The notes beneath the pieces were generated by a model. The model was given only the letters and a program-made list of their open reading frames with translations, searched no databases and was not told the DNA's origin. The position numbers and the translations under genes are program-made. A DNA stretch of 64,000 nt from Candidatus Hadarchaeales archaeon (GTDB lineage: Archaea > Hadarchaeota > Hadarchaeia > Hadarchaeales > Hadarchaeaceae), in NCBI GenBank assembly GCA_038851075.1, contig JAWCLG010000003.1, forward strand, positions 33,820 to 97,819, read 5' to 3'. Below, one piece after another: positions 32,054-63,199 of the stretch (position 1 is its first letter; the number at the start of each line of letters is the position of its first letter).

Positions 32054-33112
32054 ATGACCGTTTCCTCGATATACGTAATTTCTCCGGCGGAATGCTCAGG
32101 AAAAACCAGCATCATAGTTTCCATGGCCATCAAAGCGAGGGAACTCGGAAAAAGCGTCGGGTATTTCAAGCCGATAGGATACAGATCTCCGGTGGAACAG
32201 ACCGAAGAGCACATTGACGACGATGCAAAAAATATTAAGGAGATACTCGGCCTTGAAGAAGAACCAGATGTCCTGTGTCCAGTCGTTATCGACAAACAAG
32301 ATTTTTTGAAGAATATCTCGCAAAAAAATGAAATAAGAAAAAGAATAATCGAATGCTATAAAAAAGTATCTAAAGGAAAAGATCTGCTGCTCATCGAGGG
32401 TCCCCACTCAATTTCAGGGGGAATATCTATCGACTGCGCAGCACCGGATCTAGCCAGAGAGTTTGGCTCAAGAATAATAGTGGCAGCAAACGCAGAAAAC
32501 GACTCATTTATGGAGGAGCTTCTACTTACCGTAAAATTCTGCGAGAGGTACAGTATAACTCCTGCAGGAGCGATACTCAACAAGGTTTCAGATTACTATT
32601 CTGAAGTGGAGAGCGCGGTGAAATCTATTCTCGAAAAAGAGGGAATCGAGCTGCTGGGATCTATACCAAAGAACGAGATACTCGGCTCACCCCGGGTTCT
32701 TGAGATAGTCGACTCTATTGGCGGAGATATCATCGCAGGAAGAGAGGGTTTGGGCAACATCGTCCAAAACCTGATGATCGGGGCAATGTCTCTGGAAAGC
32801 GCGATGAAACATTTCCGCAAGAGCACAAAAAAGCTCGTGATAGTCGGCGGGGACAGAACCGACATCATCTCGGCGGCTCTGGAAACGGGGGCCTCCGCGG
32901 TTGTCGTCACCGGAAATCTCTACCCGAGTGTAAAGATACTGCCAAAAGCGGACGAGCTTAAAACACCGGTGCTGCTTGTCCCATATGACACCTACACGGC
33001 GCTTAGCATGATTCAAAAAATAGTTGGGAAGATAAAACCCAATGACAGAGCTAAAATTGACGTCATAAAAAAATTTGGAGCAAACATCAACTTGGATAAA
33101 ATCATGAACTAG
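32054..33112 (+). CDS. Pta-N-terminal-like protein: DTBS/CobQ-type P-loop domain plus DRTGG domain
   Basis: The SGKTSI P-loop with YFKPIG is followed by the DRTGG signature VIVGGDRTDIISAALETGASAVVVTG. Confidence 0.7.
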   Translation: MTVSSIYVISPAECSGKTSIIVSMAIKARELGKSVGYFKPIGYRSPVEQTEEHIDDDAKNIKEILGLEEEPDVLCPVVIDKQDFLKNISQKNEIRKRIIECYKKVSKGKDLLLIEGPHSISGGISIDCAAPDLAREFGSRIIVAANAENDSFMEELLLTVKFCERYSITPAGAILNKVSDYYSEVESAVKSILEKEGIELLGSIPKNEILGSPRVLEIVDSIGGDIIAGREGLGNIVQNLMIGAMSLESAMKHFRKSTKKLVIVGGDRTDIISAALETGASAVVVTGNLYPSVKILPKADELKTPVLLVPYDTYTALSMIQKIVGKIKPNDRAKIDVIKKFGANINLDKIMN

Positions 33113-35567
33113 AAAACTTTCTGGTACCAGCCCCTATCTCCCTGACAATCCTTCCAACGTTTTCTCTCGGATTGGACGAGTTATAAATCGCGCTTCCCGC
33201 TATGCATATGTCGGCTCCAGCGGCGACCACATCTCCAGCGACGCCTTCCTTTATGCCTCCGGCGACGGCCAGCAGAAAGTCTCCGGCAACTTTCTTTGCC
33301 TCCGATATGAGCTGCGCCTGTTCATATATTCCCCTGCCCTTCAGCTGCTCGCTTATTCCCCTGTGGATGCAGAAGATAACCCTGTTTTCATGACCCCCAA
33401 GGAGTTCCTTCAGCTCTCTCATAACATGCAACGGGTTCAAACAGTCTATGAAATCCACGAGAACCGCTCTGTCCCATCTTGTGGCCTCGCTGATCGCCTC
33501 CATTACCTTGGTCTTGCCCCCGATGGCCAGTACAGCTGACACGTCGGCCCCTGCTCTGAACGCTATTCTGGCTTCCAAGTTACCTACGTCCATGGTCTTC
33601 AGGTCAGCTACAATTATGGCATCCGGAGCGACCTTTCTGAGCGCCGGGATAAGACGATCGACTCCATGCCTTTTGACTGCTGGTGTGCCAGCCTCGATGA
33701 TACGTGCACCTCCAAGGTAAGCATCCTTCGCAACTGAGGAGATCGTTTCAATGTCTGAGTCCATATCCAGAGCGACCTGAAGCGCGGGAAGAGAGAGCCT
33801 CTCGATGGGGCTCAGAACGACCTCAAACTTCCTGGCAAACTGAACCCTCCTCAACCGCACTGGTTTCGGAACACCCTTGGTGCTCCATTCCCTCTCGGAA
33901 TAATAAGCTCTGATAAGCCCCCTAAGATCAATGCCAAAATCTCCCGGAAGCCTGTCATCCCCGGGCCCAAATTTTTCTCTGATGTTGAAAAGACGCTCTG
34001 TGTCATAAATGCGTGACCCGACATCGTGGAGATACTCTCCGGTCCACAGCATACCCGTGACCGCGGTCAGCGCCTTTGCCACATCGTCAAGCTCATAGTC
34101 AAGCGTTGCGAAAAGCGCGAATCCATGGTACTTGCATCCGATCATTGAATCGTAAACCGCAAAAGCATCCTGCATTCTCCTCACCAGCCTTGCCTTTCCC
34201 CTGTCTGATCTCGGGTCCACAAACTCCGGATTACTCAGTATCTCTGGTCCAATGGTATACGCACGGAGGTGACACGCCCCCCTATTTGATGTCGCATAAG
34301 CGAGTGCTATCCCTCTCGCGCCTCTTGGATCATATGCCGGAAGTTCAAGTCCCTTCACGATCGGTGCCAGCAGCCCCTTTACCCTCCCGATTTTTGCAAG
34401 TCCAAACGAATACTTTGACCTTCCACCCGCTATCTCCCTGATAAGTCTCCTCGCATCCTCGATTCCTTTTATTTCTTCAGCCTTCCTTGCGTATCCCAGA
34501 ATTCCGCCGACAGAAATCGCATCAAGACCCAGCTCATCGCACATCCTGTTGAGCTCCGAGATCTGTTCGTACTCATAAAATCCTGAATTCGGACCCAGCA
34601 TCACGATATTCTCGAACTCCGCGCCCTTACCCTCCCGCCCTCCGACATTGACCCATCTGCCGCAGGCCGTGGGACACGCGAAACAAGCGGTCTTTCTGAC
34701 GAGATATTTCTCCCGCACCGTCTCTCCGGAAAACGCGTCCACGTCATCAAAACTCAACCTTCTTCCAGAGAAGTTATCGTTTGGGAGCATGCCCGCGGCT
34801 GTTATCCTGTGAACCAGCAGCGCGGTTCCAAATCTGGCCAGGCTTCCATCGATTCCTGTGATGGGGTGCGTCTCAACTATCTTTCTGATCTTTTTCAGTA
34901 CTTTTTCAAACTCCCCGGGGTGCTCAACCCTTACCTTTTGGGTACCTCTCACAACCACCGCCTTCAGCCGCTTTGATCCCATAACCGCGCCCATACCGCA
35001 CCTTCCCGCAAATCCCTCCCTGCCGCCCTTTCCGGCGGTGTAAACGCACGCCATTCTCGCCAGATTTTCACCTGCAGGACCTATCGTCGCCACCCATGAA
35101 CCACCGTGTGAATTAAGAAGCTCGCTGCCAGCTTCCACCGTGCTTTTGCCCCAGAGTTCCCCTGCATCCTCAATCGAGACATTTTCACCATCCACTGAGA
35201 GATAAACGGGCTTTTTGGAGGCGCCTTCAAAAACGATACCGTCAAAGCCGGCCATCTTCAGGAAAGCACCGAACGACCCGCCCATCAGCGAATCCGCCAC
35301 GGTCCCTGTCAAAGGAGACTTTGAACAAACAGCGGTTCTGCCGGCTCCCGGATACGGAGTTCCGGTGAGGGGCCCTGTCATGAACACTATCCTGTTTACA
35401 GGACTCAGCGGATCGGTTCCGGGAGCAAGCTCATCGTAGAGCAGCTTTGCGGCGTACCCCCTTCCGCCAAGATAGTTGTAAGCCACCGAGAGGTCCAGCT
35501 TCTCAACTTCTGTTCGCCCTTCTGTGAGGTCAACGCGCAGAATCCTTCCCGCATAACCCCCGACCAT
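33102..35567 (-). CDS. Fusion protein: aldehyde:ferredoxin oxidoreductase (AOR family, tungstopterin) N-terminal ~590 aa plus 3-hexulose-6-phosphate synthase-like (OMPDC superfamily) C-terminal ~226 aa
   Basis: The AOR part has MVGGYAGRILRVDLTEG...YNYLGGRGYAAKLLY and the Cys cluster context CFACPTACGRW. The C-terminal part starts at LPALQVALDMD (nt 33782 downward) and continues with ADLKTMDVG and AVAGGI...AGSAIY, as in HPS. It is one uninterrupted ORF. Confidence 0.85.
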   Translation of the reverse strand: MVGGYAGRILRVDLTEGRTEVEKLDLSVAYNYLGGRGYAAKLLYDELAPGTDPLSPVNRIVFMTGPLTGTPYPGAGRTAVCSKSPLTGTVADSLMGGSFGAFLKMAGFDGIVFEGASKKPVYLSVDGENVSIEDAGELWGKSTVEAGSELLNSHGGSWVATIGPAGENLARMACVYTAGKGGREGFAGRCGMGAVMGSKRLKAVVVRGTQKVRVEHPGEFEKVLKKIRKIVETHPITGIDGSLARFGTALLVHRITAAGMLPNDNFSGRRLSFDDVDAFSGETVREKYLVRKTACFACPTACGRWVNVGGREGKGAEFENIVMLGPNSGFYEYEQISELNRMCDELGLDAISVGGILGYARKAEEIKGIEDARRLIREIAGGRSKYSFGLAKIGRVKGLLAPIVKGLELPAYDPRGARGIALAYATSNRGACHLRAYTIGPEILSNPEFVDPRSDRGKARLVRRMQDAFAVYDSMIGCKYHGFALFATLDYELDDVAKALTAVTGMLWTGEYLHDVGSRIYDTERLFNIREKFGPGDDRLPGDFGIDLRGLIRAYYSEREWSTKGVPKPVRLRRVQFARKFEVVLSPIERLSLPALQVALDMDSDIETISSVAKDAYLGGARIIEAGTPAVKRHGVDRLIPALRKVAPDAIIVADLKTMDVGNLEARIAFRAGADVSAVLAIGGKTKVMEAISEATRWDRAVLVDFIDCLNPLHVMRELKELLGGHENRVIFCIHRGISEQLKGRGIYEQAQLISEAKKVAGDFLLAVAGGIKEGVAGDVVAAGADICIAGSAIYNSSNPRENVGRIVREIGAGTRKFSSS

Positions 35568-50935: not shown

Positions 50936-53365
50936 TTAACCCATCAAGACTCTCACAGAGTGTACCTTCCCATCTCGATGAGGCATTATAATATTGCCCT
51001 CCAGCTCCTCCCCATCAACGTGAATTTCCTTCACTCCACGCTGTACTCCACTTGGGTTTTCAATGGATATGTTATACGACGCCCCCCTGAAAGGCCTCGT
51101 TATCGAACATTTTTTCCATTTTGATGGTATACATGGGTCAATTCTAAGACCCTGATAATCTGGTTTTACACCTAGCATGTGCTCACACATGACTTGAAAA
51201 CTCCATCCTGCAGTTCCAGTTACCCATGTATATGCGCCTCGGCCCGAATCGTAAGGGTGCTCTGGCCCGATAAGATACTCTGCGAAAACATAAGGTTCCG
51301 CCTTGTATCGTCTTTGCTCCTGTTTGCAGGGCATTATCTTGCAGAGACGCCTATATGCAACATCTCCTCTGCCAAGCATGCAATCTGCAGCTATCATAAA
51401 CGCGTTTGCGTGACAAAATATCGCAGCGTTTTCCTTTGTTCCTCTGGCAAACGCTGTTATCCTCCCTATTCTAGGGTCTGTAGAAGTGTACGCAGGATAG
51501 AAAAGCACCAGACCGTTATCCTTCTCTAGATATTTATCAACCGAAGCAGTCAATTTTTTGATTCTCTCTGGCGGGACCACTCCGGAAAGTATCGCCCAGG
51601 ACTGTGGATTCAGATATATTTTTCCTTCTTTATTTGCGGATGAACCAAAAGGCTCTCCATCATCGGTGAAACCCCTCAAATACCACTCTCCGTCCCAGCC
51701 CACTTTGTTTATCCTTCGCGTCATTTCGTCAGCCTTTTTTATTAGATCGGTGGAGATTTCCTTTTCATTGATTAGAACCGCGAGATCTGCCGCTATCTTA
51801 AGAGATCTTACAAGCGCCATTGCAAGCCAGACGCTTTCCCCAACACCCCTCCTGCCAACCATATCCAGAGCATCGTTCCAGTCCGCCTCCCCGATTCTTG
51901 GCAAACCATGATCACTAACATCGTTGAACGTGTAGTTCAGCTGGGCTAGCATATGCTCGAATATAGTTCCTTCTCCGTCCTCAGTGGCTCCTTTGTGCCA
52001 GTTAGGATCCCTTATCGTTCCACCCATCCTCCATGCGTCCCTTAGCCAAGGTGCTTTTTGCATGAGAAAATTAACGTCTCCTGTCTCCTTCACGTAGGAC
52101 GCCACGGAAGGGGTGAACCATATCGGATGATCCTTGTACGGCTTCTGCGGGAACGGTCCATAAGTATCAGACCACCCCGGAGCGCATGTGCCATCTCTCC
52201 TTATTATTGAAGCTATTTTCAATAATTTTTCTCTGGCATGAAGTACATCTACTGCGAGCAGGGCTTGGGCATCCTGACAGGAATCGCGGTATCCTCTACC
52301 TCCCTGCCCCTCGTGGTAGTATGATGGAGATCTGCTCCAGTAATTGCATACGTAAAGTTGGTATTTCGTCCATATGTTAGCCATGATGTCAAAATCAGAG
52401 TCTGGAGTGCTGACAGCTATTTTACCTAGACGCTCTCTCCAAGTTTTTTTGACCTCATCCAGCTCACTTTCCACATTTTTTAAGTCATAGTATTTTTTAA
52501 GTGTCATAACCGCTTTTTCCTCGCCTTCGGTTTCACCCACAACAAAAACTATAATCCTCTCTTCTCCGGGAGCAAGCGCAATGTTATGCTGCAAGACACC
52601 GATAGCTTCATTGCCCTCGCAAAGGCTCTGGTTGCATTTTCCTCTGAAAATCGACTCGGGCTTTTCCTCGTTATTATAAAGTCCCAAGAACTTATGTTTA
52701 TGACAGTCCCAACCATCGACCTTAGATGGTGTTCCAATGAAAGCGATCAGCGGATTCGATGAAACTGGCAGTTGCTCGTAGACCGCCTGCCCGAAAACCA
52801 GCGTCTTTTTGGCAAAAATAGCGTTCGCATTTTTTTCAAACCATGCTCTATTATACAGTATTGCTATGTTGTGGAAGTTCATCTCAACGTTGTCCCCAAG
52901 CATCCACTCAAGATAGCTGAACACGCTTAAATTCCGTTTTTTCTTTGATTTGTTTTTTATTCTTACCCTCCATATTTCACATGTATCTACTCTGGGGACG
53001 AAGTAGGTTACCTCACCATATATGCCCCCTGAGGATGAGGAGATAACCTGATACCCTAAACCGACCCTAGCTTCAAATTTATCTAAAGCCCTCCTCAAAG
53101 GTTGCCAAGTTATGCTAAAAACTTCTCCGCTGTCTCTATCTCGAATAAAAACATAACGCCCCGGTCTGTCCGTCCATAGATCCCTGCCCACCCAATAAAG
53201 TATTCGATCTGTTTTTGGGTCTTTATAAAAGCTGTACCCGCCACCTGTGTGCGATATAACCGCGCAATACTTCTCGTTCGTCAAAAAATTTACCCATGGG
53301 GCAGGGAGATCCGGTCTGTTTATAATATATTCATAATTATCTTTGCTAAATCTCCCATATTTCAT
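50936..53365 (-). CDS. GH94-family glycoside phosphorylase (cellobiose/cellodextrin/chitobiose/laminaribiose phosphorylase-like), cytoplasmic
   Basis: MKYGRFSKDNYEYIINRPDLPAPWVNFLTNEKYCAVISHTGGGYSFYKDPKTDRILYW is the characteristic GH94 N-terminus. The protein is ~809 aa with no signal sequence. I chose the start at M13 of the track ORF. Confidence 0.88.
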   Translation of the reverse strand: MKYGRFSKDNYEYIINRPDLPAPWVNFLTNEKYCAVISHTGGGYSFYKDPKTDRILYWVGRDLWTDRPGRYVFIRDRDSGEVFSITWQPLRRALDKFEARVGLGYQVISSSSGGIYGEVTYFVPRVDTCEIWRVRIKNKSKKKRNLSVFSYLEWMLGDNVEMNFHNIAILYNRAWFEKNANAIFAKKTLVFGQAVYEQLPVSSNPLIAFIGTPSKVDGWDCHKHKFLGLYNNEEKPESIFRGKCNQSLCEGNEAIGVLQHNIALAPGEERIIVFVVGETEGEEKAVMTLKKYYDLKNVESELDEVKKTWRERLGKIAVSTPDSDFDIMANIWTKYQLYVCNYWSRSPSYYHEGQGGRGYRDSCQDAQALLAVDVLHAREKLLKIASIIRRDGTCAPGWSDTYGPFPQKPYKDHPIWFTPSVASYVKETGDVNFLMQKAPWLRDAWRMGGTIRDPNWHKGATEDGEGTIFEHMLAQLNYTFNDVSDHGLPRIGEADWNDALDMVGRRGVGESVWLAMALVRSLKIAADLAVLINEKEISTDLIKKADEMTRRINKVGWDGEWYLRGFTDDGEPFGSSANKEGKIYLNPQSWAILSGVVPPERIKKLTASVDKYLEKDNGLVLFYPAYTSTDPRIGRITAFARGTKENAAIFCHANAFMIAADCMLGRGDVAYRRLCKIMPCKQEQRRYKAEPYVFAEYLIGPEHPYDSGRGAYTWVTGTAGWSFQVMCEHMLGVKPDYQGLRIDPCIPSKWKKCSITRPFRGASYNISIENPSGVQRGVKEIHVDGEELEGNIIMPHRDGKVHSVRVLMG

Positions 53366-53607
53366 TTTCAGCCACTCTCCTTTTTTTGATCTATTTCTCA
53401 CAGATTAAATCAGTACAGGATAAAAATATAACCCATAGTGCACAGTTTTAGAGTACTGGGGCAGTAAATTGCACAAACATGAGAAAAACCCGTTGATCAT
53501 GTTTTTTCACTGCCTCGCAGGCGACCTGCAGGCTACGCTCGAACTTGCTCAGCCTGTTTATCCTGAGACAAATGGTCTACGGTGGTTCAACCCTTATCCT
53601 CACATAA

Positions 53608-53668: not shown

Positions 53669-54571
53669 ATGGATAACGTTCAAGAGTGGTTAGAACCAAC
53701 AAAAAAAATACCTACTGCAATAGTAACTGTTATAATTTTGATTATTTGTGTTGCCTCTGCTTTTACAGTTATAATCATTTTCACACCAAAAGCTGCAGAC
53801 AATGGTTCCACAGGTAGTGGTGGAGGTAATGGAACGGCAAGCCAAAATATGCCACCTACGGCCATGTTTACTTACTCACCGAGTTCCCCAACTGTGGACG
53901 ACGATGTATTCTTCATTAATATGTCCACTGACATCGATGGCACAATCATAAGCTACAGCTGGAACTTTGGGGATGGAAATACAAGCACGGATCAAAATCC
54001 CATTCACAAATATTCTACAGCTGGTACTTACTCTGTTAGACTCACCGTAACAGACAACGGTGGGAAAACGGGGGATTATGAGAAATCAATAACTATTGGA
54101 GGAACCGGAGAAAACGTCTTCCAAGACTTCGAGTTAAACAACGGCACACCAGGAGCATATTTCTATAACGCTTGGAGAGCAAGCTCCGCATTTGAAACAA
54201 ATATAGTGCAGGGAGGGATCAGATCTGTGAAGTTTGTGGTACCCCCACCAGATAATCAGAATAATGGCGCCACTCTCGGGATAAATGTCGCCTCACCAAC
54301 TGGGACAATCGACCTCACTAATGCAACGAATATTTCACTATGGGTTTATGATACTCAAGGGAACAATACCATAGAACTCAAACTTAAAGACAAAAATGGA
54401 ACCCTCGGTCCAGGCATTTGGTCAAGCTTGTCGTCTGTATGGAACACTTGGACAAAGATAACTTGGAACATCAGCGAATATCAGGGTGTCGATATGAGCC
54501 AGATCGCAGCAATAGAACTTTATGAGTGGAATGGGGGCACATACTACTTTGATACTATTGCATACAAATGA
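53669..54571 (+). CDS. Signal-anchored PKD-domain protein with a C-terminal CBM-like beta-sandwich (third type)
   Basis: The PKD signature is FTYSPSSPTVDDDVFFINMSTDIDGTIISYSWNFGDGNTSTDQNPIHKYSTAGTYSVRLTVTD. The C-terminus carries TNISLWVYDTQGNNTIELKLKD...WTKITWNISEY...YYFDTIAY. Confidence 0.6.
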   Translation: MDNVQEWLEPTKKIPTAIVTVIILIICVASAFTVIIIFTPKAADNGSTGSGGGNGTASQNMPPTAMFTYSPSSPTVDDDVFFINMSTDIDGTIISYSWNFGDGNTSTDQNPIHKYSTAGTYSVRLTVTDNGGKTGDYEKSITIGGTGENVFQDFELNNGTPGAYFYNAWRASSAFETNIVQGGIRSVKFVVPPPDNQNNGATLGINVASPTGTIDLTNATNISLWVYDTQGNNTIELKLKDKNGTLGPGIWSSLSSVWNTWTKITWNISEYQGVDMSQIAAIELYEWNGGTYYFDTIAYK

Positions 54572-54856: not shown

Positions 54857-56098
54857 CTAATATTTTACCTGGCTTTTTACATGAGTAACGTTTCTAATAT
54901 TTTTTATCTCTTGCAAGATTGAAGGTGACTTTTCAAGAGCCACGCCCTTCATTATTTTTATATCATCCAACATGTGCCAATTGGTCTGACCGCCAGTGCT
55001 GGCTGAAAATCCGATTCCGTCATACGCTCGTTCTATTTTTCCGCTCCATTCCAGAACTTTATTCTCATCGATATGGACTGTCACAGCAGAGTCCTCAACT
55101 ATAACTTTTACATAGTGCCATTTAGAATCGACAACCCTGGGCTCTTCCACGTACTCAAGGTGATTTTTTGGATGGTTTTTGATAAGCGCAAGATGAGGAT
55201 ATGGAGGATCTCCGTAATCTACGTTTTGTACTCCATCAAACTCTATCCCATATCCTGGAATTGGAGCAACTCCAGACACAAAACCCAAGTTTCCACCGTC
55301 ACACGGCCAATAGTTTTTTTTCTTGTAAAACATGAAAACAAAACCATCGCCTCCACTACCGCCTCCGATCTTGTATTTGAAATCCGCAATGAATGGAGAT
55401 TTTATTCCTTTTTTAAGCCACATTATCCCGGCCTGCCATTCCTGATTTTTTGTGAGAACAACACATTTTTTAGAAATGTCATAATATGCATCGCGCACCA
55501 TAATCCACATCCTCTTATTAATATTGGTAGACTTTGCCTCAAGCAAAGATTGTACGTCAACTGTACCGCTTGAGATGTTGTTGATTATGTTTGTGTAGTT
55601 TATACGCAGCACTGGGGTTTCTCTTAATTGGAACGTTTCAAGTGTACAGACTCTTTTCATAAAATACTCGGAAAAAGATTCATTTTCTTTTGAGGATAAT
55701 ATATCTGGATCCTCCTCAGCCTTTGGGATGTATTTCAGATATGTGAGAAGATCGTTTATTTCCATTTCCTTAAACTCGCCATTTAGATCCTTGACTTTTA
55801 TTATTTCTCTGCCCAGCCTTTCTTTTATAGTTCGATATGCTGAAAGTCCCTCATCAGTAAGGAAATAAACATTCTTAAATCTGCCAGTGCTTCTTGAGAA
55901 TTTTCTGTCGTGCGCGACCAGTTTATTTTTTTCCAGTTCCTTTATGGTTGTTGATATTCGCTCCAGAGACATATTAATATTTTCAGCGATACCTGCTTGT
56001 GTCAAAGAATGAGGAAACTCATCATTATAACTCCTGACGATATCCCTATTGTCACCTAGATAGATGATTATCTTTTCATCTAACCGTATGGTTAACAT
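54857..56098 (-). CDS. Putative transcription regulator: N-terminal winged helix plus C-terminal L-type (legume-like) lectin / ConA-like domain
   Basis: The N-terminus LTQAGIAENINMSLERISTTIKELEKNKLVAHDR...YFLTDEGL is wHTH. The C-terminus aligns to L-type lectin blocks: GDGFVFMF (ADGxAFF), GGNLGF, GYGIEFDGVQN...DPPYPHLALIKN (VAVEFDT.QN..DP...HIGIDVN) and GIGFSASTGGQTNWHML (VGFSAxTG....H.I). There is no signal peptide or TM segment. Confidence 0.65.
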   Translation of the reverse strand: MLTIRLDEKIIIYLGDNRDIVRSYNDEFPHSLTQAGIAENINMSLERISTTIKELEKNKLVAHDRKFSRSTGRFKNVYFLTDEGLSAYRTIKERLGREIIKVKDLNGEFKEMEINDLLTYLKYIPKAEEDPDILSSKENESFSEYFMKRVCTLETFQLRETPVLRINYTNIINNISSGTVDVQSLLEAKSTNINKRMWIMVRDAYYDISKKCVVLTKNQEWQAGIMWLKKGIKSPFIADFKYKIGGGSGGDGFVFMFYKKKNYWPCDGGNLGFVSGVAPIPGYGIEFDGVQNVDYGDPPYPHLALIKNHPKNHLEYVEEPRVVDSKWHYVKVIVEDSAVTVHIDENKVLEWSGKIERAYDGIGFSASTGGQTNWHMLDDIKIMKGVALEKSPSILQEIKNIRNVTHVKSQVKY

Positions 56099-56395: not shown

Positions 56396-57976
56396 TTGAG
56401 GATTATCGTGGTAAACAAAAAAATCGTCTTGGCTACCGGGCTTTCGATAGCCGCGGTGATTATCGCTGTCTTCTTCATTCTTAACTTAGAAAAAAGGTGG
56501 TGGATCGAGGAAACCCGAGAAGATCAGGTTTACTTCGGTGCTTTCGTGCCCGGTGTTGAGGCATCAATTAAACTTCTTGATCAGCTTGAGAGCACTATCG
56601 GACAAAAGCTAACGATAATAAACACATTCCTGCCATCCAGCGCTGATTTTCCGGCCGAGTTCTGCGAACGCATAATCTACCACGGAGCAATACCCATGAT
56701 AACTTGGATGCCCCAGCCCAGAGACCCGAGCACCGAACACGGCAGAGTGCTGGACAGCATCGCCGGGGGCAACTGGGACAGTTATATAAGAAAATGGGCC
56801 GTGGATGCAAGAAACTTCGGTAAACCGGTGTACATTAGATGGGGGCATGAGTTCAACGGATACTGGTACCCCTGGAGCGTCCCAGCGAACGAAAACAGCC
56901 CCGATAAATTTGTGGCGGCATGGAAGCACGTTCACGACATATTTGCCAGAGAGGGTGCAACAAACGTCCAGTGGGTATGGTGCCCGTACCTGCGCAGCAA
57001 CCCTGATGAGGCGTGGAACGATCCACTGCTCGCATATCCGGGTGACGAGTACGTGGACTGGATCGGAATCGATGAGTACAACTGGGGATCAAGCTTCATA
57101 TGGAGCAACTGGCTTGAGTTCAGCGAGATCTTCTCGAACAAGGTGAGGATATTCAGCACGCACTTTCCGACAAAACCGATAATGATCGCCGAGGTCGGGT
57201 GTACCGAGGAAAATGAGCTACCGGGTCAGACGAAAGCCCAGTGGGTGAGAAACATGCTGGACTCTCTAAAGTGGATGACTCCAATACGTGCTGTTGTTTG
57301 GTTCAACTCATTTAAGGAAACAGACTGGCGCATGGAGTCGAGCGAAAGTTCTCTGGATGCTTTTAAAGAGATTTTTAGGGATGCGTACATAGCAGACGAT
57401 GCGAGAGGTCTCTGGAAGATCCCTGATAACTTCAGATCTGACCCGAACATATGGCCCACTTCAACAGTAAGGGCGGAGATGCCGTTCTACGTTTACGGAG
57501 ACAACGGTGGAAACTTTGCTGCCTCTGGGTGGATGGGGGACTACCAATCCATGACCCTTTCAGAGTACTGTACGGAAACCCCAGCTGTAGGAGACACCTG
57601 CATGAAGGTAAAGTACGACATAACAACCAGCAGGAAGGTCTGGGCAGGAATCTACTGGCAGAACCCGCCCAACAACTGGGGTAACGAAGATGGAGGATAT
57701 GACCTCTCAGATGCAACAAAGTTAGTATTCTGGGCCAGGGGCGAAAACGGAGGGGAAATTGTGAACTTCAAAACAGGCGGTATAAGCGGCAGTTACCCGG
57801 ACTCGGCTTTCGTCGTGCTCGGAACAATAACCCTGTCAAAAGAATGGCGAGAGTATGAGATTGACCTCAGGGGACACGATCTGTCATACATATCCGGTGG
57901 GTTTGTTTGGGTCGCCAAACAGGACCAGAACCCCAAGGGGTGCACGATATACCTAGACGAGATAAGATATGAATAA
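56396..57976 (+). CDS. Signal-anchored GH26-like glycosidase (mannanase/lichenase family) plus C-terminal 'module B'
   Basis: GH26 blocks are present: YIRWGHEFNGYWYPW (acid/base Glu), YPGDEYVDWIGIDEYNW and PIMIAEVGC (nucleophile Glu). The C-terminal ~160 aa are homologous to the 47309 ORF C-terminus. The start may be the GTG at 56408. Confidence 0.8.
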   Translation: MRIIVVNKKIVLATGLSIAAVIIAVFFILNLEKRWWIEETREDQVYFGAFVPGVEASIKLLDQLESTIGQKLTIINTFLPSSADFPAEFCERIIYHGAIPMITWMPQPRDPSTEHGRVLDSIAGGNWDSYIRKWAVDARNFGKPVYIRWGHEFNGYWYPWSVPANENSPDKFVAAWKHVHDIFAREGATNVQWVWCPYLRSNPDEAWNDPLLAYPGDEYVDWIGIDEYNWGSSFIWSNWLEFSEIFSNKVRIFSTHFPTKPIMIAEVGCTEENELPGQTKAQWVRNMLDSLKWMTPIRAVVWFNSFKETDWRMESSESSLDAFKEIFRDAYIADDARGLWKIPDNFRSDPNIWPTSTVRAEMPFYVYGDNGGNFAASGWMGDYQSMTLSEYCTETPAVGDTCMKVKYDITTSRKVWAGIYWQNPPNNWGNEDGGYDLSDATKLVFWARGENGGEIVNFKTGGISGSYPDSAFVVLGTITLSKEWREYEIDLRGHDLSYISGGFVWVAKQDQNPKGCTIYLDEIRYE

Positions 57977-58016
57977 CACCACAAGTATTAAAAGAAAACC
58001 CGATGAAGGAGAAGAG

Positions 58017-59411
58017 ATGAAAATGATGATGATTTCCTTCAGGAAAGAGAACAGGGGAGTATCAAAAACACTCCCTGTGATAATTATTATTGCAATAGCG
58101 GTGTTCGGAATTCTTATTTATAGAAGCCTGGGCGGCGGTGCCGAAATGCGCTGGTGGACCGTTCACTCAGGCGCATGGGGGCACTCTGAATGGCACACGT
58201 ATTCCCTTGAAGAATACGACAAGCTTTACGGACACCTTATTGAAAGAACCGACTATGACAATCCAAACTTTAAATCTTCAATACTCAACGCAATGCTCGC
58301 TGGTGACCCGCCGGAGATATGGCATTCCTGGGGGGGGACCCAGCTGAAGAACTTTGTTGAGATGGGGTACGTTGAAGACCTGACCGACCTGATGAATGAG
58401 AGCTGGGCACTGGATATACTTCCCCTCGAAAGCCGCGATAAGCTGATATGGAACTCCACCTGGAACGGAAAAAACTATGGATTTCCATACAGCGTTGGAG
58501 TTATCCAGATATACGTTAACAAAGACCTGTTCGATTCGTGCGGCATAGATTTGCCATCAGTTGAAAACGATGAAACATGGACATGGAGTCAGTTCATTGA
58601 CGCGATACAGACACTTAAAAATCACGGGATAACTCCAATAACGATCGCGGGGACTGAGACATGGCAGCTCTCATTCTGGTATATGTACCTTGTAGACCGA
58701 ATTGGAGGACCGGAGTACTTCACCAAAACGCTGAACCGCTATCCGGGATACTCCTTTGAAGACAATGTGTTCTTGGAGGCTGCCAGAAAGTGCAGGGAGC
58801 TCGTGGAGATGGGTGCATTCCAGCAGACATTCATGGCGGACGGATACGACAAGGCCATAACGATGTTCTCCCAGGGACAGGCCGCAATGTACCTTCAGGG
58901 CTCCTGGGAGATAAAAACTATGAAAACTTACTATAATCAGAACCTGAACGTTGACGTTATCAGGTTCCCCCTCATGGACAACAGCGCCAACGGCGACCCG
59001 CACTCAATTGTTGTGAACGTTCAGGACTACTTCTGCGTCTCATCAACTACGAAGAACAAGGAGGCAGCGTTCAACTTCATAAGGCTGCTTGGCAGAGAGG
59101 ACGTGATTAGAAAATTTGTTGAAAAGGCCGGGGATATATGCGTGTTCGACTCCAGAGTCGGGGGAGGAGTAGACATTCCATCCTCGCTCTACGAGCCGGT
59201 GATCAACAAGCAAATCGAAGAGTTCAACAACTCCACCCATACACAGATGCCCTGGGATCAGTACTCTCCGCAGCAGTTCGCACAGAAGCACCTAGAGTGC
59301 ATGAAGAGGCTCTTCGATGGCACGTGGACTCCAGAGAAGGTGGCCCAAGAGCATGAAACAATAGCCCAATCCCTGAAAACGAGTGGTTACCTGCCGGTCT
59401 CATATGGATGA
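58017..59411 (+). CDS. ABC transporter sugar-binding protein (solute-binding family 1), signal-anchored
   Basis: An N-terminal anchor is followed by a typical family-1 SBP layout (PEIWHSWGG...NGKNYGFPYS...AAMYLQGSWE). I chose the start at MKMMM (58017). Confidence 0.85.
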   Translation: MKMMMISFRKENRGVSKTLPVIIIIAIAVFGILIYRSLGGGAEMRWWTVHSGAWGHSEWHTYSLEEYDKLYGHLIERTDYDNPNFKSSILNAMLAGDPPEIWHSWGGTQLKNFVEMGYVEDLTDLMNESWALDILPLESRDKLIWNSTWNGKNYGFPYSVGVIQIYVNKDLFDSCGIDLPSVENDETWTWSQFIDAIQTLKNHGITPITIAGTETWQLSFWYMYLVDRIGGPEYFTKTLNRYPGYSFEDNVFLEAARKCRELVEMGAFQQTFMADGYDKAITMFSQGQAAMYLQGSWEIKTMKTYYNQNLNVDVIRFPLMDNSANGDPHSIVVNVQDYFCVSSTTKNKEAAFNFIRLLGREDVIRKFVEKAGDICVFDSRVGGGVDIPSSLYEPVINKQIEEFNNSTHTQMPWDQYSPQQFAQKHLECMKRLFDGTWTPEKVAQEHETIAQSLKTSGYLPVSYG

Positions 59412-59429: not shown

Positions 59430-61193
59430 GTGAAGAGAAACTTTTTACCCTACATCTTCATTTTACCTGCACTTGTCCTATTTCTGATGTTCTTCATATT
59501 CCCGAATGCCTACGTTTTCTATTTGTCGATGCACGAACTTGGTCCGAGCGGTGAGGCGCAGGAAAACTGCCTTACCAGCATTTACCCTCGATACCTGAAT
59601 GAGAACAACTTCTATCGGGCAGAGTTTGATATAAAATCCGGAATTTTTTGCCTGATGAGGATATACGAAGGAAACGAAGAAACTCTCATTTCTGACGGTT
59701 TTTCATCTGGTAGGGTCGGAACCTGGTACAAATTAAGGGTTGAGGTGATAAAAAAGGACAACGTCGATACGATAAGATCTTGGATAATCGGAATTGAGAA
59801 CGGATATAAAATCTTTGAAAACTCGTGCGCTCCGCTGAACCACGGCGGACTTGCCCTGTCAGCATATTTCAACAGGGATTTTACTGTGGTCTGGGACGAT
59901 CTCCGGATGATGGAATATCTCGAAGATAAGCCGAATGTGGCTTTTGGCGAAGAAACAAGTTCAGACATTGAAAACTGGGAAAGGAGCAGAACCATTGAAA
60001 TCGAGGGAACTGGTAAAGCACTGGAAAACTATCCGATCCAGTTCGATATTGAATGGCAGACAGACATGAGGGCTGACTTTGGAGATATCCGGTTTACGGG
60101 GGAAAATGGAGCCGAATTTCTGGACTACTGGATCGAGAGGTACTCGCGCGGTCAGCTTGCAACCGTCTGGGTGAAAATCCCATTATTGCCGGAGAACGGT
60201 ACCGCAATCAAAGTTCACTACGGCAACCCTGAGGCAACTTCATCAAGCGAGATTCGGAAAACTTTTGTATTCGGGGACGATTTCGAAGACGCCGCCTGGA
60301 CGAACGCCCACTTTGAGATGTCCGAATGTGAAGGGTGCTCGCAAGTGGCTGAAAACGGAGAATATGTGATGATGGGCAATGCTGGGTCTCTTGTGTTCAC
60401 CAATATAAACCTCCCAGAAATTCCTGAAAACATTGTTTTGGAGGTAAACGTGAAGTTGAAGAAGGTAGGCACAAGAGAATTTGGTCTTTCGTTCGTCGGG
60501 GCAAAAAATTTCTTGGAGCTATTCTCAGACAACATGTTTCTGATGTCTCTGCTTCTGGTCGCAGGCATAGCGATACAGTCCATAGTGGTGCAGGTCCCCG
60601 CGGGTCTGGGGCTCGCTCTTGCGCTGAGGAACATCAGGGGATCCCGCACTTTCCTAACCATATTCTTCCTCCCGATGACAATATCCCTCGTCACACTCTG
60701 CCTTATGTGGAAGTACCTCATATTCAGTCCTCAGGGCATTCTTAACTCAACCTTTGGGATGAGCCTCGACCCGACCAAAGATGCGTTCACGCTCTTCCTC
60801 GCGGTGAACATCATCGCGGACTGGATATATATTGGACTTTACACTGTGATGTTCAACAGCGCCATGAAAAGCATACCAAAATCTGTTTTTGACGCCGCCA
60901 AGGTCGATGGGCTCTCAGGATTCAAAACCCTTAGAAAGATAGTGATACCTGCCCTGAAGAACATCATTCTGGTATCGATAATAATGTGCATCTCCGGGAC
61001 TTTCAAAACATTTGACACGTGGTGGGTGCTGGGAGGAGGTCCGACCGCCCCGCTTCATCTGCCCTCAACCTATCTGGTGACAAAAATAGGGTCCGGTCTA
61101 ATAGGATATGCCTCAGCCATAGCTGTGATCAGTTTCTTCATATGTCTGGTCATAGTGCTAATCCAGCTGAAGGCGATGAAGGTGAAGGTATGA
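59430..61193 (+). CDS. ABC sugar permease (MalF/UgpA type) with a ~330-aa extracytoplasmic DUF2341/LamG-like insertion after TM1
   Basis: TM1 is YIFILPALVLFLMFFIFPNAYVFYLSM. The insertion contains ADFGDIRFTGENGAEFLDYWIERYSRGQLATVWVKIPLLPENGTAIKVHYGNPEA, a DUF2341 signature. The normal permease core then resumes at FVGAKNFLELF and carries the EAA-type loop AAKVDGLSGFKTLRKIVIP. Confidence 0.85.
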   Translation: MKRNFLPYIFILPALVLFLMFFIFPNAYVFYLSMHELGPSGEAQENCLTSIYPRYLNENNFYRAEFDIKSGIFCLMRIYEGNEETLISDGFSSGRVGTWYKLRVEVIKKDNVDTIRSWIIGIENGYKIFENSCAPLNHGGLALSAYFNRDFTVVWDDLRMMEYLEDKPNVAFGEETSSDIENWERSRTIEIEGTGKALENYPIQFDIEWQTDMRADFGDIRFTGENGAEFLDYWIERYSRGQLATVWVKIPLLPENGTAIKVHYGNPEATSSSEIRKTFVFGDDFEDAAWTNAHFEMSECEGCSQVAENGEYVMMGNAGSLVFTNINLPEIPENIVLEVNVKLKKVGTREFGLSFVGAKNFLELFSDNMFLMSLLLVAGIAIQSIVVQVPAGLGLALALRNIRGSRTFLTIFFLPMTISLVTLCLMWKYLIFSPQGILNSTFGMSLDPTKDAFTLFLAVNIIADWIYIGLYTVMFNSAMKSIPKSVFDAAKVDGLSGFKTLRKIVIPALKNIILVSIIMCISGTFKTFDTWWVLGGGPTAPLHLPSTYLVTKIGSGLIGYASAIAVISFFICLVIVLIQLKAMKVKV

Positions 61194-62077
61194 AAACCGA
61201 ATTCGAGAAGGAATGGCACGGTAAAAAGATACTGAAATACGCCGTCCTGGTGATTTTCGCCGCGATAATACTTGTTCCCATAATTATGCTCGTGGTGGAA
61301 TCACTGAAAACCGGTGAAGAGTTCGTCAAGAATCCCCTGTCCCTTCCATCAAATCCGCAGTTCTCAAACTACATCGACGCCTGGAGAGGTGAGACCACAA
61401 CAATGGTCCCGGGACAAAAAATCAATCTCGGGATAGGAATCGAAGATGGTTTCATAAACAGTCTCATAGTGGTGATTGCTTCCGTTTTTATAATTCTGGG
61501 CATAGGGCCGCTCGCCGCATACGCACTTTCATCCCTTGACCTGAGAGGAAGACGAGCATATTTCTACGTTTTTATGAGCGGCATGTTCATCGGAGGACCT
61601 GCGCTGCCTGCCCTCTGGATGCTGACAAACATGCTCGGCATTTACAACACATATCTGGCGCTGATACTCCCATATGTAGCCGGGGCCCTGCCGTTCACCA
61701 TCCTGATAATGTGGTCGTATTTTAAATCCACCTCAAGGTCCCTGTACGAGGCCGCAAAGATAGACGGTCTCTCCCAGTTCAAAACTTATTACAAAGTGAT
61801 GCTTCCAACCGCCATGCCCGCGCTCATGACGGTAGCCATACTGCAGACAATATGGATATGGAACGAATTTTTGCTATCGCTTGTGCTAATACAGAACCCC
61901 AACTTTTACACAATCCCCAGGGCGGTTTACTTCTTCTCAACCGCGGCCACCAAAGGACCGGGCTGGGGGATATTCTTCGCCGGAGTTCTGCTGGCAGCCC
62001 TTCCCACAGTGATAGCATACTTGCTGTTCTCTGAACAGATAAAGAGAGGCATGAGCATGGAGGTCTTCAAGGGCTGA
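61190..62077 (+). CDS. ABC sugar permease (MalG/UgpE type)
   Basis: The ATG at 61190 overlaps the upstream stop (ATGA). The EAA loop EAAKIDGLSQFKTYYKVMLP is present. I rejected the track ORF's 57-aa N-terminal extension. Confidence 0.9.
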   Translation: MKTEFEKEWHGKKILKYAVLVIFAAIILVPIIMLVVESLKTGEEFVKNPLSLPSNPQFSNYIDAWRGETTTMVPGQKINLGIGIEDGFINSLIVVIASVFIILGIGPLAAYALSSLDLRGRRAYFYVFMSGMFIGGPALPALWMLTNMLGIYNTYLALILPYVAGALPFTILIMWSYFKSTSRSLYEAAKIDGLSQFKTYYKVMLPTAMPALMTVAILQTIWIWNEFLLSLVLIQNPNFYTIPRAVYFFSTAATKGPGWGIFFAGVLLAALPTVIAYLLFSEQIKRGMSMEVFKG

Positions 62078-62089
62078 GCGAAGGAACGC

Positions 62090-63199
62090 TCAGGCCACCA
62101 TCACTCCTCCGGGCTCATCAAAAAACCTGACGCATTCCATACTGAGGGTCAGATAAACCGTGCTTCCAACGTCCTTCCCGAAATCGGGGCGAACCACTGC
62201 AGTCATCTTCGTCCCACCAGCGTCCAGCTCCAGATATTTAACGTTGCCCATCTGCTGAGAGAAATAAACCTTGGCCGGCATGGCCCCCCTCATCCTCTTT
62301 TCGCTCACCTGAATATGCTCCGGTCTTATTCCGATGGTTATCTTCGAGCCTGAGATGCTTCTCTTTAACGCGCGCCACAGCGGCAAAGGTATCAACAGAC
62401 TGAAATCACCAGTCGCCTCAAAGAACACTTTTCCTCTCCTTCTTACCAGATCTCCGGTCACGAAATTTATTTTTGGACTGCCTATGAACTCCGCTATAAA
62501 CTTGTTAGCGGGACAATCATATATTGTCTTTGGCCTGTCCAGCTGGAGCAGCTTTCCGTCCTTAAGCACCGCAACCCTGTCAGCAAGTACCATCGCCTCG
62601 GCCTGATCATGTGTTACGTACACGGTTGTTGTCTTCAACTTATTATGCAACTTCTTGAGCTCTGTTCTCATGGAAACCCTAAACAACGCGTCCAGGTTTG
62701 AAAGCGGCTCATCCATAAGATAAATGGATGGGTTTCTGACGATCGCCCTCCCAAGAGCCACCCTCTGTTGCTGCCCTCCGCTCAGCGCAGTGGGCCTTCT
62801 TCTAAGCAGGTGCGTTATCTGAAGTATTTCTGCGGTCTTTGTCACCCTCTCAACTATTTCTTCCTTTGGGACTTTGTCGACCTGAAGACAGAGGGCCATG
62901 TTATCAAAAACCGTCATGTGCGGGTAAAGGGCGTACTCCTGAAAAACCATTGCCACGTTTCTTTCCTTGGGCTCGAGATCGTTGACGCACTTTCCGTTGA
63001 ACAGTATTCTGCCCTTGGTTGGCTTTTCTAGACCGGCAATCAACCTCAATGCGGTGGTCTTGCCGCAGCCTGACGGGCCGAGAAAAACCATGAACTCTCT
63101 ATCCTTTATTTCTAGATCTAGGTTATCGACAGCCTTCACGCTGCCGAACTCCTTGCACAGATGTTCAAGCTCAACTTCTACCATTTTTGACCATTCCAT
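62090..63199 (-). CDS. ABC transporter ATP-binding protein (MalK/UgpC type with C-terminal TOBE-like domain)
   Basis: Walker A GPSGCGKTT, signature LSGGQQQRVALGRA, Walker B IYLMDEPLS. The start is possibly M6 (63184). Confidence 0.92.
   Translation of the reverse strand: MEWSKMVEVELEHLCKEFGSVKAVDNLDLEIKDREFMVFLGPSGCGKTTALRLIAGLEKPTKGRILFNGKCVNDLEPKERNVAMVFQEYALYPHMTVFDNMALCLQVDKVPKEEIVERVTKTAEILQITHLLRRRPTALSGGQQQRVALGRAIVRNPSIYLMDEPLSNLDALFRVSMRTELKKLHNKLKTTTVYVTHDQAEAMVLADRVAVLKDGKLLQLDRPKTIYDCPANKFIAEFIGSPKINFVTGDLVRRRGKVFFEATGDFSLLIPLPLWRALKRSISGSKITIGIRPEHIQVSEKRMRGAMPAKVYFSQQMGNVKYLELDAGGTKMTAVVRPDFGKDVGSTVYLTLSMECVRFFDEPGGVMVA

Follow-up and report, generated by a model that had tools for sequence, protein, structure and literature searches.

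Extracytoplasmic domains on transporter membrane subunits

To our knowledge accessory extracytoplasmic domains are rare on the membrane subunits of ABC importers. The textbook case is the P2 loop of MalF, a feature that has been called unique to maltose import.

In the E. coli maltose importer MalFGK2-E, P2 comprises residues 91–276, between TM3 and TM4 of the eight-TM subunit MalF, and folds as a single Ig-like domain of ~186 aa with proven binding of MalE (PMC6906923). SugA (from the LpqY-SugABC systems of M. smegmatis/M. tuberculosis), UgpA, the archaeal GlcT and AlgM1 share a BPD_transp_1 core of six TM segments, the FxGxxNF motif ahead of TM2, the EAA loop and an operon with genes for an SBP, a second TMD and a MalK-type ATPase, and in these the loop in question is only 8–10 residues long. 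Importers of the OpuA/GlnPQ type, and a Bdellovibrio MalE-MalF fusion cited in PMC6906923, also carry an extracytoplasmic ligand-handling domain covalently on a type I TMD; these domains are true SBP folds, are terminal and replace the free SBP. DUF2341 has been tied to pilus-tip adhesins and exoproteins (PMC4858521, PMC10133366, PMC11809585), and it is found at the N-terminus of the A subunits of the MotA/ExbB-like "generic ion transporters" (GIT), likewise on an energised membrane machine and outside the cytoplasm (PMC12505986).

The permease described here, from a Hadarchaeales MAG, has something in common with all of these. As in MalF, a large domain outside the cytoplasm occupies this inter-helix loop of the first CUT1 TMD, and the cores are homologous, but the host is an archaeon, the permease has six TM segments, and the P2-position loop carries a wholly different, larger module of two domains and ~316 aa, without sequence similarity to P2 and of independent origin. 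Its core, motifs and gene neighbours are those of SugA, UgpA, GlcT and AlgM1. Unlike the OpuA/GlnPQ type it keeps a separate SBP gene, and the fold of its extra domain is unrelated to SBPs; unlike the GIT A subunits, which belong to a proton channel and in which permutation is unreported, it is an ABC TMD with DUF2341 inserted within a loop and not at a terminus.

The permease gene, its loop and its topology

Within the window (the whole stretch of DNA that was analysed, 64,000 nt) positions 59430–61193 of the forward strand constitute a single intact ORF specifying 587 aa, the product being identical to an NCBI protein entered as [quoted passage not shown]. Its GTG lies 18 nt past the stop codon of the SBP gene, with the purine-rich sequence GGAAGTGGGG just before it. 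The parts of the gene are as follows.

59430–61193, forward strand: fused permease gene, GTG start, TGA stop at 61191–61193
59442–59537 (aa ~5–36), forward strand: TM1, preceded by a cytoplasmic N-terminus, hydropathy peak 2.63, helix 6–36 in the AF2 model
59538–60485 (aa 37–352, ~316 aa), forward strand: extracytoplasmic insert, all-beta and compact, between TM1 and FVGxxNF
59571–59945 (aa 48–172), forward strand: N-piece of the insert, assigned to the C-terminal half of the sandwich (IYPRY...WYKLRV...WDDLRMMEY...P)
59946–60254 (aa ~173–275), forward strand: DUF2341 structural domain, seven strands
60255–60479 (aa 276–350), forward strand: C-piece of the insert, assigned to the N-terminal half of the sandwich (TFVFGDDFE...ENGEY...PENIVLEVNVKLKKVG)
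60486–61190 (aa 353–587), forward strand: permease core with the FVGAKNF motif and TM2–TM6, from PF00528, the SugA/MalF/AlgM1 alignments and hydropathy
60891–60950 (aa 488–507), forward strand: EAA-type coupling motif DAAKVDGLSGFKTLRKIVIP, in the loop that joins core TM4 to TM5 on the cytoplasmic side

The initial annotation had described a MalF/UgpA-type permease with a large DUF2341 insertion after TM1, and profile searches bear this out: PF10102 [DUF2341] matches aa 216–290, within the insert (E 1.7e-17, 64 bits against a cut-off of 23.4), and PF00528 [BPD_transp_1] matches aa 389–579 (E 1.1e-14, 55 bits against a gathering threshold of 26.4). The former match (60075–60299) extends into the first strand of the sandwich. 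The motifs from which the insertion had been recognized are all present, namely ADFGDIRFTGENGAEFLDYWIERY, VWVKIPLL and HYGN, followed by FVGAKNFLELF, and the limits first given (59535–60515, aa 36–362) were essentially right, being refined here to aa 37–352.

Among TMDs of solved structure, phmmer aligned the permease with SugA [7cad, 2e-15], MalF [2r6g, 2e-6] and AlgM1 [7e-6]. The SugA core (residues 62–292) pairs with aa 353–582 and SugA TM1 (23–53) with aa 6–36; the latter alignment, to 7cad_A, is colinear but weak (0.4 bits, i-Evalue 1.2e+03) and alone is not significant. Between TM1 and the core there are 8 residues in SugA as against ~316 here, and the ordinary permeases at L004, L007 and L009 have ~10 residues in the loop which holds the insert. 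The NCBIfam profiles for GlcT, UgpA and MalF, as well as the SugA structure, cover the fused permease only from aa ~347–356 on, and since the equivalog scores fall far under their cut-offs (GlcT, 81 bits against 360) it does not qualify as an equivalog of a named permease. The protein is classified as the first TMD of a CUT1-type (MalF/UgpA/SugA-like) type I ABC importer, with SBP-dependent, ATP-driven sugar uptake as its predicted function.

The insert faces the cell exterior. Six hydropathy peaks correspond to six TM segments with both termini in the cytoplasm, the distribution of positive charge agrees with the positive-inside rule, with MKR at the N-terminus, the EAA loop at aa 488–507 is cytoplasmic, and the order of the parts is colinear with SugA and MalF. 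The full-length AF2 model has low confidence in the TM core. The coupling motif, defined as EAA---G---------I-LP (PMC6906923), here reads D488-A-A-KVD-G494-LSGFKTLRK-I504-V-I-P507 and is invariant in six orthologues.

Homology to MalF restarts at MalF residue ~259–264, and a comparison of aa 37–352 with MalF and PDB chains gave no match, MalF aligning only from residue 259 onward. By these alignments the insert shares the loop of P2, core TM1–TM2 corresponding to TM3–TM4 of MalF: the two are equivalent in position and unrelated in origin. It had been proposed that the insertion is functionally analogous to, much larger than and unrelated to P2; the size (~316 as against 186 aa, PMC6906923) and the lack of relationship are as claimed, while analogy understates the case, the loop being the same one.

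Because the sequence derives from a MAG one might suspect a mis-assembly or frameshift by which two genes, one for DUF2341 and one for a permease, have been fused, or else a neutral, functionless insertion, and the insert does diverge faster than the core (pairwise identity among orthologues 54% and 82%, respectively). Against this, six orthologues with 58–74% identity, all with PF10102 and PF00528, were recovered from mutually independent samples and assemblers (NCBI, ENA, JGI, Logan), each as one continuous frame without stops or frameshifts. The insert has TM1 before it and the remainder of the permease after it, an arrangement that no simple gene fusion yields. The fold predicted for the insert by AF2 is confident, and its dN/dS is ~0.19, compared with 0.11 for the core, as calculated from a single orthologue pair with unsaturated dS. 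We consider an artefact or a relic very improbable indeed. In four of the orthologues (loci L001/L002, L010, L011/L012) the same operon is found: GH26 lichenase-like enzyme, SBP, fused permease, second permease and ATPase. The initial annotation had named two outcomes that would count against it, a fusion artefact and a cytoplasmic insertion; neither holds, given the shared architecture and operon in the first case and the topology in the second. What we see is a genuine, conserved domain insertion in a Hadarchaeota permease, ~316 residues standing in place of the usual 8–10.

In scans of GTDB genomes and JGI metagenomes by full-length alignment, the Hadarchaeota contig already known was recovered, and otherwise only permeases of the ordinary kind and DUF2341 proteins that are unrelated. 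Three apparent further fusions (L004, L007, L009) were rejected, their long matches being neighbouring ordinary permease pairs, as were P0012 and P0013, permeases of 588 and 660 aa with N-terminal or internal extensions unrelated to DUF2341. An exhaustive HMMER search gave 17,581 DUF2341 relatives at E<=1e-3; the best 150 of these all score at least 188 bits and are mostly multi-repeat giants, so that a distant permease with one DUF2341 module might score below them, and among ten of the shorter relatives in that set (342–898 aa), checked with Pfam, there was no permease. Only one small orthogroup of the DUF2341-permease fusion was found in all, and we found no literature on it.

A DUF2341-sandwich module in permuted order

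In a 27-sequence alignment the DUF2341 motifs D-x-R-F, Y-W-x-E, W-V-K-x-P and Y-G-N are near-invariant. Among the matches listed, the relatives of DUF2341 comprise giant surface proteins with many repeats, pilin-N proteins and L-type lectin or Laminin_G_3 proteins. The free-standing DUF2341 plus sandwich proteins (P0114, P0028 and giant exoproteins) are homologous to the insert over both of its domains, with up to 42% identity (E 1e-44), and have its conserved motifs; whereas their modules are contiguous, secreted or anchored and often in tandem, the permease has a single permuted period inside a polytopic subunit.

The permutation is apparent from the order of the matches. With the single-module protein P0114, blastp aligned aa 183–363 of the permease to residues 42–228 [1.5e-44] and the N-piece to residues 216–338 [2e-13], which is to say in swapped order, while with the two-module protein P0028 aa 54–341 aligned colinearly to residues 217–514 [1.4e-42]. 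In free-standing relatives DUF2341 precedes the sandwich. In the insert the order is the C-terminal half of the sandwich, a natural inter-module linker (the 3' end of the N-piece), DUF2341 and the N-terminal half of the sandwich, directly after which comes the pre-TM2 helix. When the sandwich is re-permuted it aligns end-to-end with natural sandwiches, and the artificial junction is gap-free (alignment A4). The AF2 model of the insert by itself has a pLDDT of 91.9 and a pTM of 0.88, from which the insert reads as one rigid unit.

Judged by these alignments the insert is one period of a tandem [DUF2341 + sandwich] array, cut within the sandwich, and its two beta-rich flanks are, on the alignments and the model, the halves of a single beta-sandwich of ~200 aa permuted around DUF2341. 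Since the cut falls inside the sandwich, the new N- and C-termini would leave from neighbouring strands of one hairpin, with short linkers to TM1 and TM2. As to origin, we might suggest permutation by duplication, a register-shifted internal segment having been taken from a tandem-repeat surface protein; a search of the 64-kb window for a second DUF2341 module as a possible donor found none. This seems a clean natural case in which circular permutation makes adjacent termini and thus enables the insertion of a domain into a polytopic membrane protein, of relevance to protein evolution and to the engineering of transporters with built-in binding domains. That the flanks are circularly permuted halves of one sandwich, and that the loop used by P2 has been elaborated independently in archaea, are new findings.

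ConA/LamG-like beta-rich stretches had been described on both sides of DUF2341. The flanks are indeed beta-rich, and an affinity of the sandwich to LamG/ConA has moderate support (81–89% in hhalign, weak Foldseek matches), but there is one permuted sandwich and not two domains. By hhalign the sandwich matches the Laminin_G/L-type-lectin region of P0141 at 80.7% and the post-DUF2341 domain of P0087 (aa 194–400) at 88.9%; as the P0087 domain is unannotated, the latter value shows a shared DUF2341-sandwich module and not LamG membership. The top Foldseek matches for the full-length model were 1ajk (prob 1.0, TMt 0.41), which is a circularly permuted GH16 glucanase, and ConA (E~5e-3); the insert-only model, which is the better one, gave weak matches only, and TM-scores against PDB and BFVD were <0.45 with high RMSD, the permutation itself hampering any alignment of the sandwich that depends on sequence order. 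Pfam searches with the native and re-permuted sandwich (E<=1) gave no match, CBM, LamG and lectin families included, nor did Pfam detect a known CBM family in the insert or re-permuted sandwich, and a PDB profile search with the insert and un-permuted sandwich (E<=10) was likewise without a match. We assign no firm fold. ConA and the engineered permuted GH16 lichenase (1ajk) resemble the insert as beta-jelly-roll sandwiches which tolerate circular permutation; their structural scores with it are weak, sequence similarity is lacking, and the permutation of ConA is post-translational whereas that of the insert is genomic and encloses an extra domain.

Operon context and the proposed role of the module

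The genes surrounding the fused permease are the following.

56396–57976, forward strand: GH26 enzyme, membrane-anchored, upstream; closest to C. thermocellum Lic26A (lichenase), E 3e-44
57969–59411, forward strand: SBP (SBP_bac_1) with an N-terminal TM anchor; nearest to xylo-oligosaccharide and other beta-oligosaccharide binders
61190–62077, forward strand: second permease (MalG/GlcU-like), its ATG overlapping the stop of the fused permease (ATGA)
62090–63199, reverse strand: MalK-type ATPase (ABC_tran + OB_MalK + TOBE_2), convergent

The convergent arrangement of the ATPase gene is kept in the orthologous loci, where the SBP gene always stands directly upstream of the fused permease. A GH94 protein encoded nearby resembles cellobiose phosphorylase [2e-144]. 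The similarity of the GH26 enzyme to Lic26A, of the SBP to beta-oligosaccharide binders and of the GH94 protein to cellobiose phosphorylase is the reason for our proposing a beta-glycan substrate. Mannan, suggested by the Pfam label of the GH26 protein, was rejected, this protein being far nearer to the lichenase than to mannanases. A PKD-domain gene is a conserved neighbour in two loci, some orthologous contigs lacking it or not covering it.

As candidate roles the initial annotation had named the capture of oligosaccharides and the docking of the SBP or of surface enzymes. We favour a role in glycan handling because the relatives of the module are surface proteins, adhesins and lectin-domain proteins, and because the nearest free-standing homologue found, P0114 (Chloroflexota, MDY6834662.1), is encoded within a Pel-like exopolysaccharide locus, a single example. 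The module would form a binding platform just over the outer face of the transporter, most likely for beta-glucan or other beta-glycan chains or long oligosaccharides. Substrate might thereby be held beside the GH26 lichenase-like enzyme and the SBP, both of them membrane-anchored, with cleavage products caught and imported instead of being lost, and the GH94 enzyme would then phosphorolyse the imported sugars. Taken jointly, the insertion, the permuted module and a beta-glycan-capturing platform at the mouth of the transporter are to us the best explanation, held tentatively and with slightly more doubt than belief; its functional part is what we infer. The stronger proposal, that the transporter is itself a glycan-capture device in which a permuted adhesin module tethers beta-glucan, making a compact Sus-like "selfish" unit for binding, cleavage and import, we regard as possible but doubtful.

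The main rival is docking in the manner of P2. The insert would bind the cognate membrane-anchored SBP, poised over the translocation pathway, without binding glycan, and may in addition tell the ATPase whether the SBP is occupied. It sits in precisely the P2 loop of MalF, where P2 binds MalE with a Kd of 7–22 uM and remains bound throughout the transport cycle (PMC6906923), the short linkers on both sides keep the module near the TMD surface, and the SBP gene is always immediately upstream. However, the insert has neither sequence nor fold relation to the Ig-like P2, its DUF2341-sandwich homologues are found in adhesins, in proteins associated with pili and in giant exoproteins, all with no SBP partner, most CUT1 importers manage without a domain of this kind, in archaea too, and the SBP has a TM anchor of its own that already holds it at the membrane. 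We judge docking rather unlikely.

One might also envisage a scaffold or spacer which recruits the GH26 enzyme or the PKD protein (a mini-cellulosome), or which contacts the S-layer and so positions the transporter. The GH26 gene and, in two loci, the PKD-domain gene are conserved neighbours, and DUF2341 on the GIT A subunits (PMC12505986) suggests a general module for interaction with the envelope, but the PKD gene is missing from, or not covered by, some of the orthologous contigs; such a role is improbable.

The beta-glycan reading offers a testable model of how organisms that lack an outer membrane may couple the processing of glycans at their surface physically to import, and gives DUF2341, widespread (>17,000 cluster representatives) and uncharacterised, a setting in a putative beta-glucan utilisation operon. 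If glycan capture is true, this permease would be the first among CUT1 TMDs to have a carbohydrate-binding domain as an integral part, DUF2341-sandwich modules would gain a first biochemical function, and permutation by duplication would have been used naturally to make a domain insertable in a membrane-protein loop.

Two further points weigh against the glycan reading. The place of the insert in the P2 loop, with MalF as precedent, argues for SBP docking no less readily than for glycan capture. The GH26 protein has at its C-terminus an extra beta domain of ~190 aa, without annotation, which could itself act as a CBM, and this counts against the insert as the glycan binder.

Architecture and topology of the fused permease

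The insert-bearing membrane subunit of this CUT1-type importer is specified by the following features:

59430..61193 (+), fused permease ORF, a single uninterrupted frame of 587 aa
59538..60485 (+), insert (aa 37–352), ~316 residues between TM1 and the permease core

Pfam identified PF10102 [DUF2341] at aa 216–290 (E 1.7e-17) and PF00528 [BPD_transp_1] at aa 389–579 (E 1.1e-14), both well over the gathering threshold, and membership of the insert in DUF2341 is firm. The archaeal GlcT, UgpA and MalF NCBIfam profiles align only from aa ~347–355 on. SugA of LpqY-SugABC (7cad) pairs in two pieces, its TM1 (23–53) with aa 6–36, weakly and colinearly, and its core (62–292) with aa 353–582 (E 2e-15), so that 8 residues in SugA correspond to ~316 here. 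In ordinary permeases taken from genomes TM1 is followed after ~10 residues by FVGxxNY. These alignments bear out the DUF2341 insertion that the initial annotation placed at 59535–60515, and refine its limits. The GTG start of the fused permease lies 18 nt past the stop codon of the substrate-binding protein (SBP) gene and is preceded by a purine-rich stretch, while at its 3' end the TGA stop (61191–61193) and the start ATG of the second permease share the tetranucleotide ATGA (61190..61193), which suggests translational coupling of the two. The start listed first for the second permease (61019, GTG) almost certainly lies too far upstream.

Hydropathy indicates six TM segments (aa ~5–27, 366–387, 408–426, 452–473, 504–525 and 556–578). 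Both ends of the protein are positively charged (N-terminal MKR, C-terminal KAMKVKV), and the K/R-rich loop at aa 474–503 contains the start of an EAA-type coupling motif (D488-A-A...G494...I504-V-I-P507) extending into TM5; such motifs contact the ATPase in the cytoplasm (PMC6906923). These features place the 338-residue TM1–TM2 loop outside the cytoplasm, in agreement with the original proposal. The loop is acidic (54 D/E versus 30 K/R) and contains a single N-glycosylation sequon.

TM3–TM8 of MalF correspond to the six-TM core, and the insert therefore lies in a loop positionally equivalent to P2; the MalF alignment begins at MalF residue ~259–264. P2 (residues 91–276, between TM3 and TM4) is Ig-like and binds MalE with a Kd of 7–22 uM (PMC6906923). 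As had been anticipated, the insert is much larger (~1.7 times) and is unrelated to P2 in sequence and fold.

Circular permutation of the insert

In free-standing relatives a signal or anchor is followed by DUF2341, 'TF(V/I)FGDDF...' and a beta-sandwich ending '...(F/Y)D(D/N)(F/L)RVR.Y...EP...G.E'. In the fused permease the C-terminal sandwich motifs lie ahead of DUF2341 and the N-terminal ones behind it. Against P0114, a single-module protein of 342 aa from Chloroflexota, BLASTP paired permease residues 183–363 with 42–228 (42% identity, E 1.5e-44) and, in swapped order, 51–175 with 216–338 (E 2e-13); against the two-module protein P0028, residues 54–341 matched 217–514 colinearly (E 1.4e-42). 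A sandwich re-permuted computationally, with aa 276–350 joined to aa 48–172, aligned end to end with the uninterrupted sandwiches that occur naturally in P0114, P0028 and another relative, P0008, the junction being essentially gapless ('...EVNVKLKKVGTRE/LTSIYPRY...' versus '...EVMVKPLKGGAAH/INPRY...', the slash marking the joint). The swapped, colinear and re-permuted alignments show the insert to be a single circularly permuted module, equivalent to one repeat unit of a tandem DUF2341-sandwich protein opened within the sandwich. It retains the connection of the natural repeat from last strand through linker and DUF2341 to first strand, its new termini lying at one hairpin and joined to TM1 and TM2 through short linkers. 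Permutation by duplication is an established concept that predicts just such an arrangement, and the permutation makes the module insertable into a loop.

The AlphaFold2 model of the insert (27-sequence alignment; mean pLDDT 91.9, pTM 0.88) is all-beta, with 10, 7 and 6 strands in the N-piece (aa 48–172), DUF2341 and the C-piece (aa 276–350), consistent with one rigid unit; in the full-length model confidence is limited to the insert owing to the shallow alignment. Homology together with the pTM points to direct contact between the sandwich halves. The beta-rich stretches noted on both sides of DUF2341 are thus present, but as halves of one permuted sandwich rather than as separate domains.

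Their description as ConA/LamG-like is plausible but not established. The sandwich, its un-permuted form included, gave no Pfam match and no PDB sequence match. With hhalign its C-terminal strands matched the Laminin_G/L-type-lectin region of the DUF2341 relative P0141 (81%), and the whole sandwich matched the domain behind DUF2341 in a further relative, P0087 (89%); since the latter region carries no Pfam annotation, this supports a shared module and not LamG membership. Foldseek with the full-length model recovered the circularly permuted GH16 1,3-1,4-glucanase 1ajk (prob 1.0, TMt 0.41) and concanavalin A. The better, insert-only model gave weak matches, which is unsurprising given that the domain is discontinuous and permuted and the aligner order-dependent. 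Matches in BFVD were viral DUF2341 proteins and tail-fibre or receptor-binding proteins.

Distribution and conservation

HMMER, run exhaustively with the insert profile against 1.84 billion cluster representatives, yielded 17,581 relatives. Among the best 150 of these, which go down to ~188 bits, so that any distant single-module fusion with a lower score would fall outside, the representative of this orthogroup (P0004) was the only permease-sized whole-profile match, the remainder being surface proteins with multiple repeats, the longest of 7,867 aa. None of 10 shorter matches checked was a permease, no further fused loci emerged when GTDB genomes and JGI metagenomes were scanned, and a literature search found no description of such a permease. 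The protein is a type I ABC importer transmembrane subunit with an accessory extracytoplasmic domain, a rare and undescribed architecture with a clear evolutionary mechanism.

NCBI lists a protein identical to the fused permease, derived from a Candidatus Hadarchaeales MAG. The initial annotation had allowed for an assembly or frameshift artefact; the PF10102 plus PF00528 architecture recurs in five further clusters (NCBI, ENA, JGI and Logan assemblies), aligned end to end at 58–74% identity, and three other loci keep the operon of GH26 enzyme, SBP, fused permease, second permease and convergent MalK-type ATPase. An artefact or relic is extremely improbable. A simple fusion of two genes is ruled out, since it could not place TM1 before the insert and the remainder of the permease after it. 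Mean pairwise identity among orthologues is 54% for the insert versus 82% for the core, the insert evolving faster. A single pair has an unsaturated dS, and its dN/dS values are 0.19 in the insert and 0.11 in the core. The insert is under purifying selection.

Possible function and genomic neighbourhood

DUF2341-sandwich modules occur in pilus-associated and adhesin-like proteins (PMC4858521), in giant exoproteins (PMC11809585) and fused to MotA/ExbB-like channels (PMC12505986), and a DUF2341 gene of the Methanococcus maripaludis Epd locus was hit in a transformation screen (PMC10133366). P0114, the nearest free-standing homolog, is encoded where a Pel-like exopolysaccharide locus ends (L015 1..9029, Chloroflexota MAG JAXHVC010000129.1). 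Together with the viral receptor-binding contexts, the adhesin, exoprotein, channel and Pel-locus settings favour a ligand-binding platform. Our preferred reading is that the insert may capture beta-glycan chains or oligosaccharides at the transporter mouth, beside the anchored GH26 enzyme and SBP. Its loop position would equally suit P2-like docking of the SBP, the main rival, which we consider less likely; a scaffold or envelope role seems unlikely. The Pel-like cluster comprises GlmS, a DUF3492+GT4 PelF-like gene, PelG and three sugar-nucleotide epimerases/dehydratases, then P0114 and, downstream, an 857-aa ORF with no Pfam match.

Other features of the neighbourhood are:

50936..53401 (-), GH94 phosphorylase, nearest cellobiose phosphorylase (3qde, E 1.9e-144), ~6 kb upstream
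53669..54571 (+), PKD-domain protein, membrane-anchored, with a C-terminal beta domain
54857..56098 (-), lectin-like HTH protein of 413 aa without a TM segment
57410..57976 (+), C-terminal domain of the GH26 enzyme, ~190 aa, without annotation
33102..35567 (-), AFOR-OMPdecase ORF of 821 aa (AFOR_N, AFOR_C and a C-terminal OMPdecase/HUMPS-family domain)

The membrane-anchored GH26 enzyme is closest to the Clostridium thermocellum lichenase Lic26A (E 3e-44) and far from mannanases. The SBP, also anchored, is closest to proteins binding xylo-oligosaccharides and other beta-oligosaccharides (E 2e-38). With the GH94 phosphorylase, which probably completes this route of beta-glucan utilisation in the cytoplasm, these affinities indicate that the substrate is most likely beta-linked gluco- or xylo-oligosaccharides released at the cell surface.

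The C-terminal beta domains of the PKD protein and GH26 enzyme are weakly similar (E 0.005), and both may be copies of one novel module of CBM-like type; orthologous locus L001 likewise has a PKD gene ahead of the operon. The protein at 54857..56098 has an N-terminal HTH with a weak Crp-like match and, at its C-terminus, an L-type-lectin beta-barrel (PF18483, E 1.4e-18, under the gathering score). Its gene is divergent from and adjoins the GH26/ABC operon, with a local GC of 0.34–0.39 versus ~0.49. The protein could be a regulator that senses sugars through a lectin-like domain in the cytoplasm. Accessory genes of the orthologous loci differ between lineages; in one from a hydrocarbon metagenome (L010 7004..10483) the ATPase is followed by another SBP and by a gene resembling GH2 beta-galactosidase. 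In the AFOR-OMPdecase ORF the OMPdecase/HUMPS-family domain occupies aa 594–805 (E 3e-21), and the product may combine a formaldehyde/aldehyde oxidoreductase with a domain resembling hexulose-phosphate synthase, which would be an unusual architecture.
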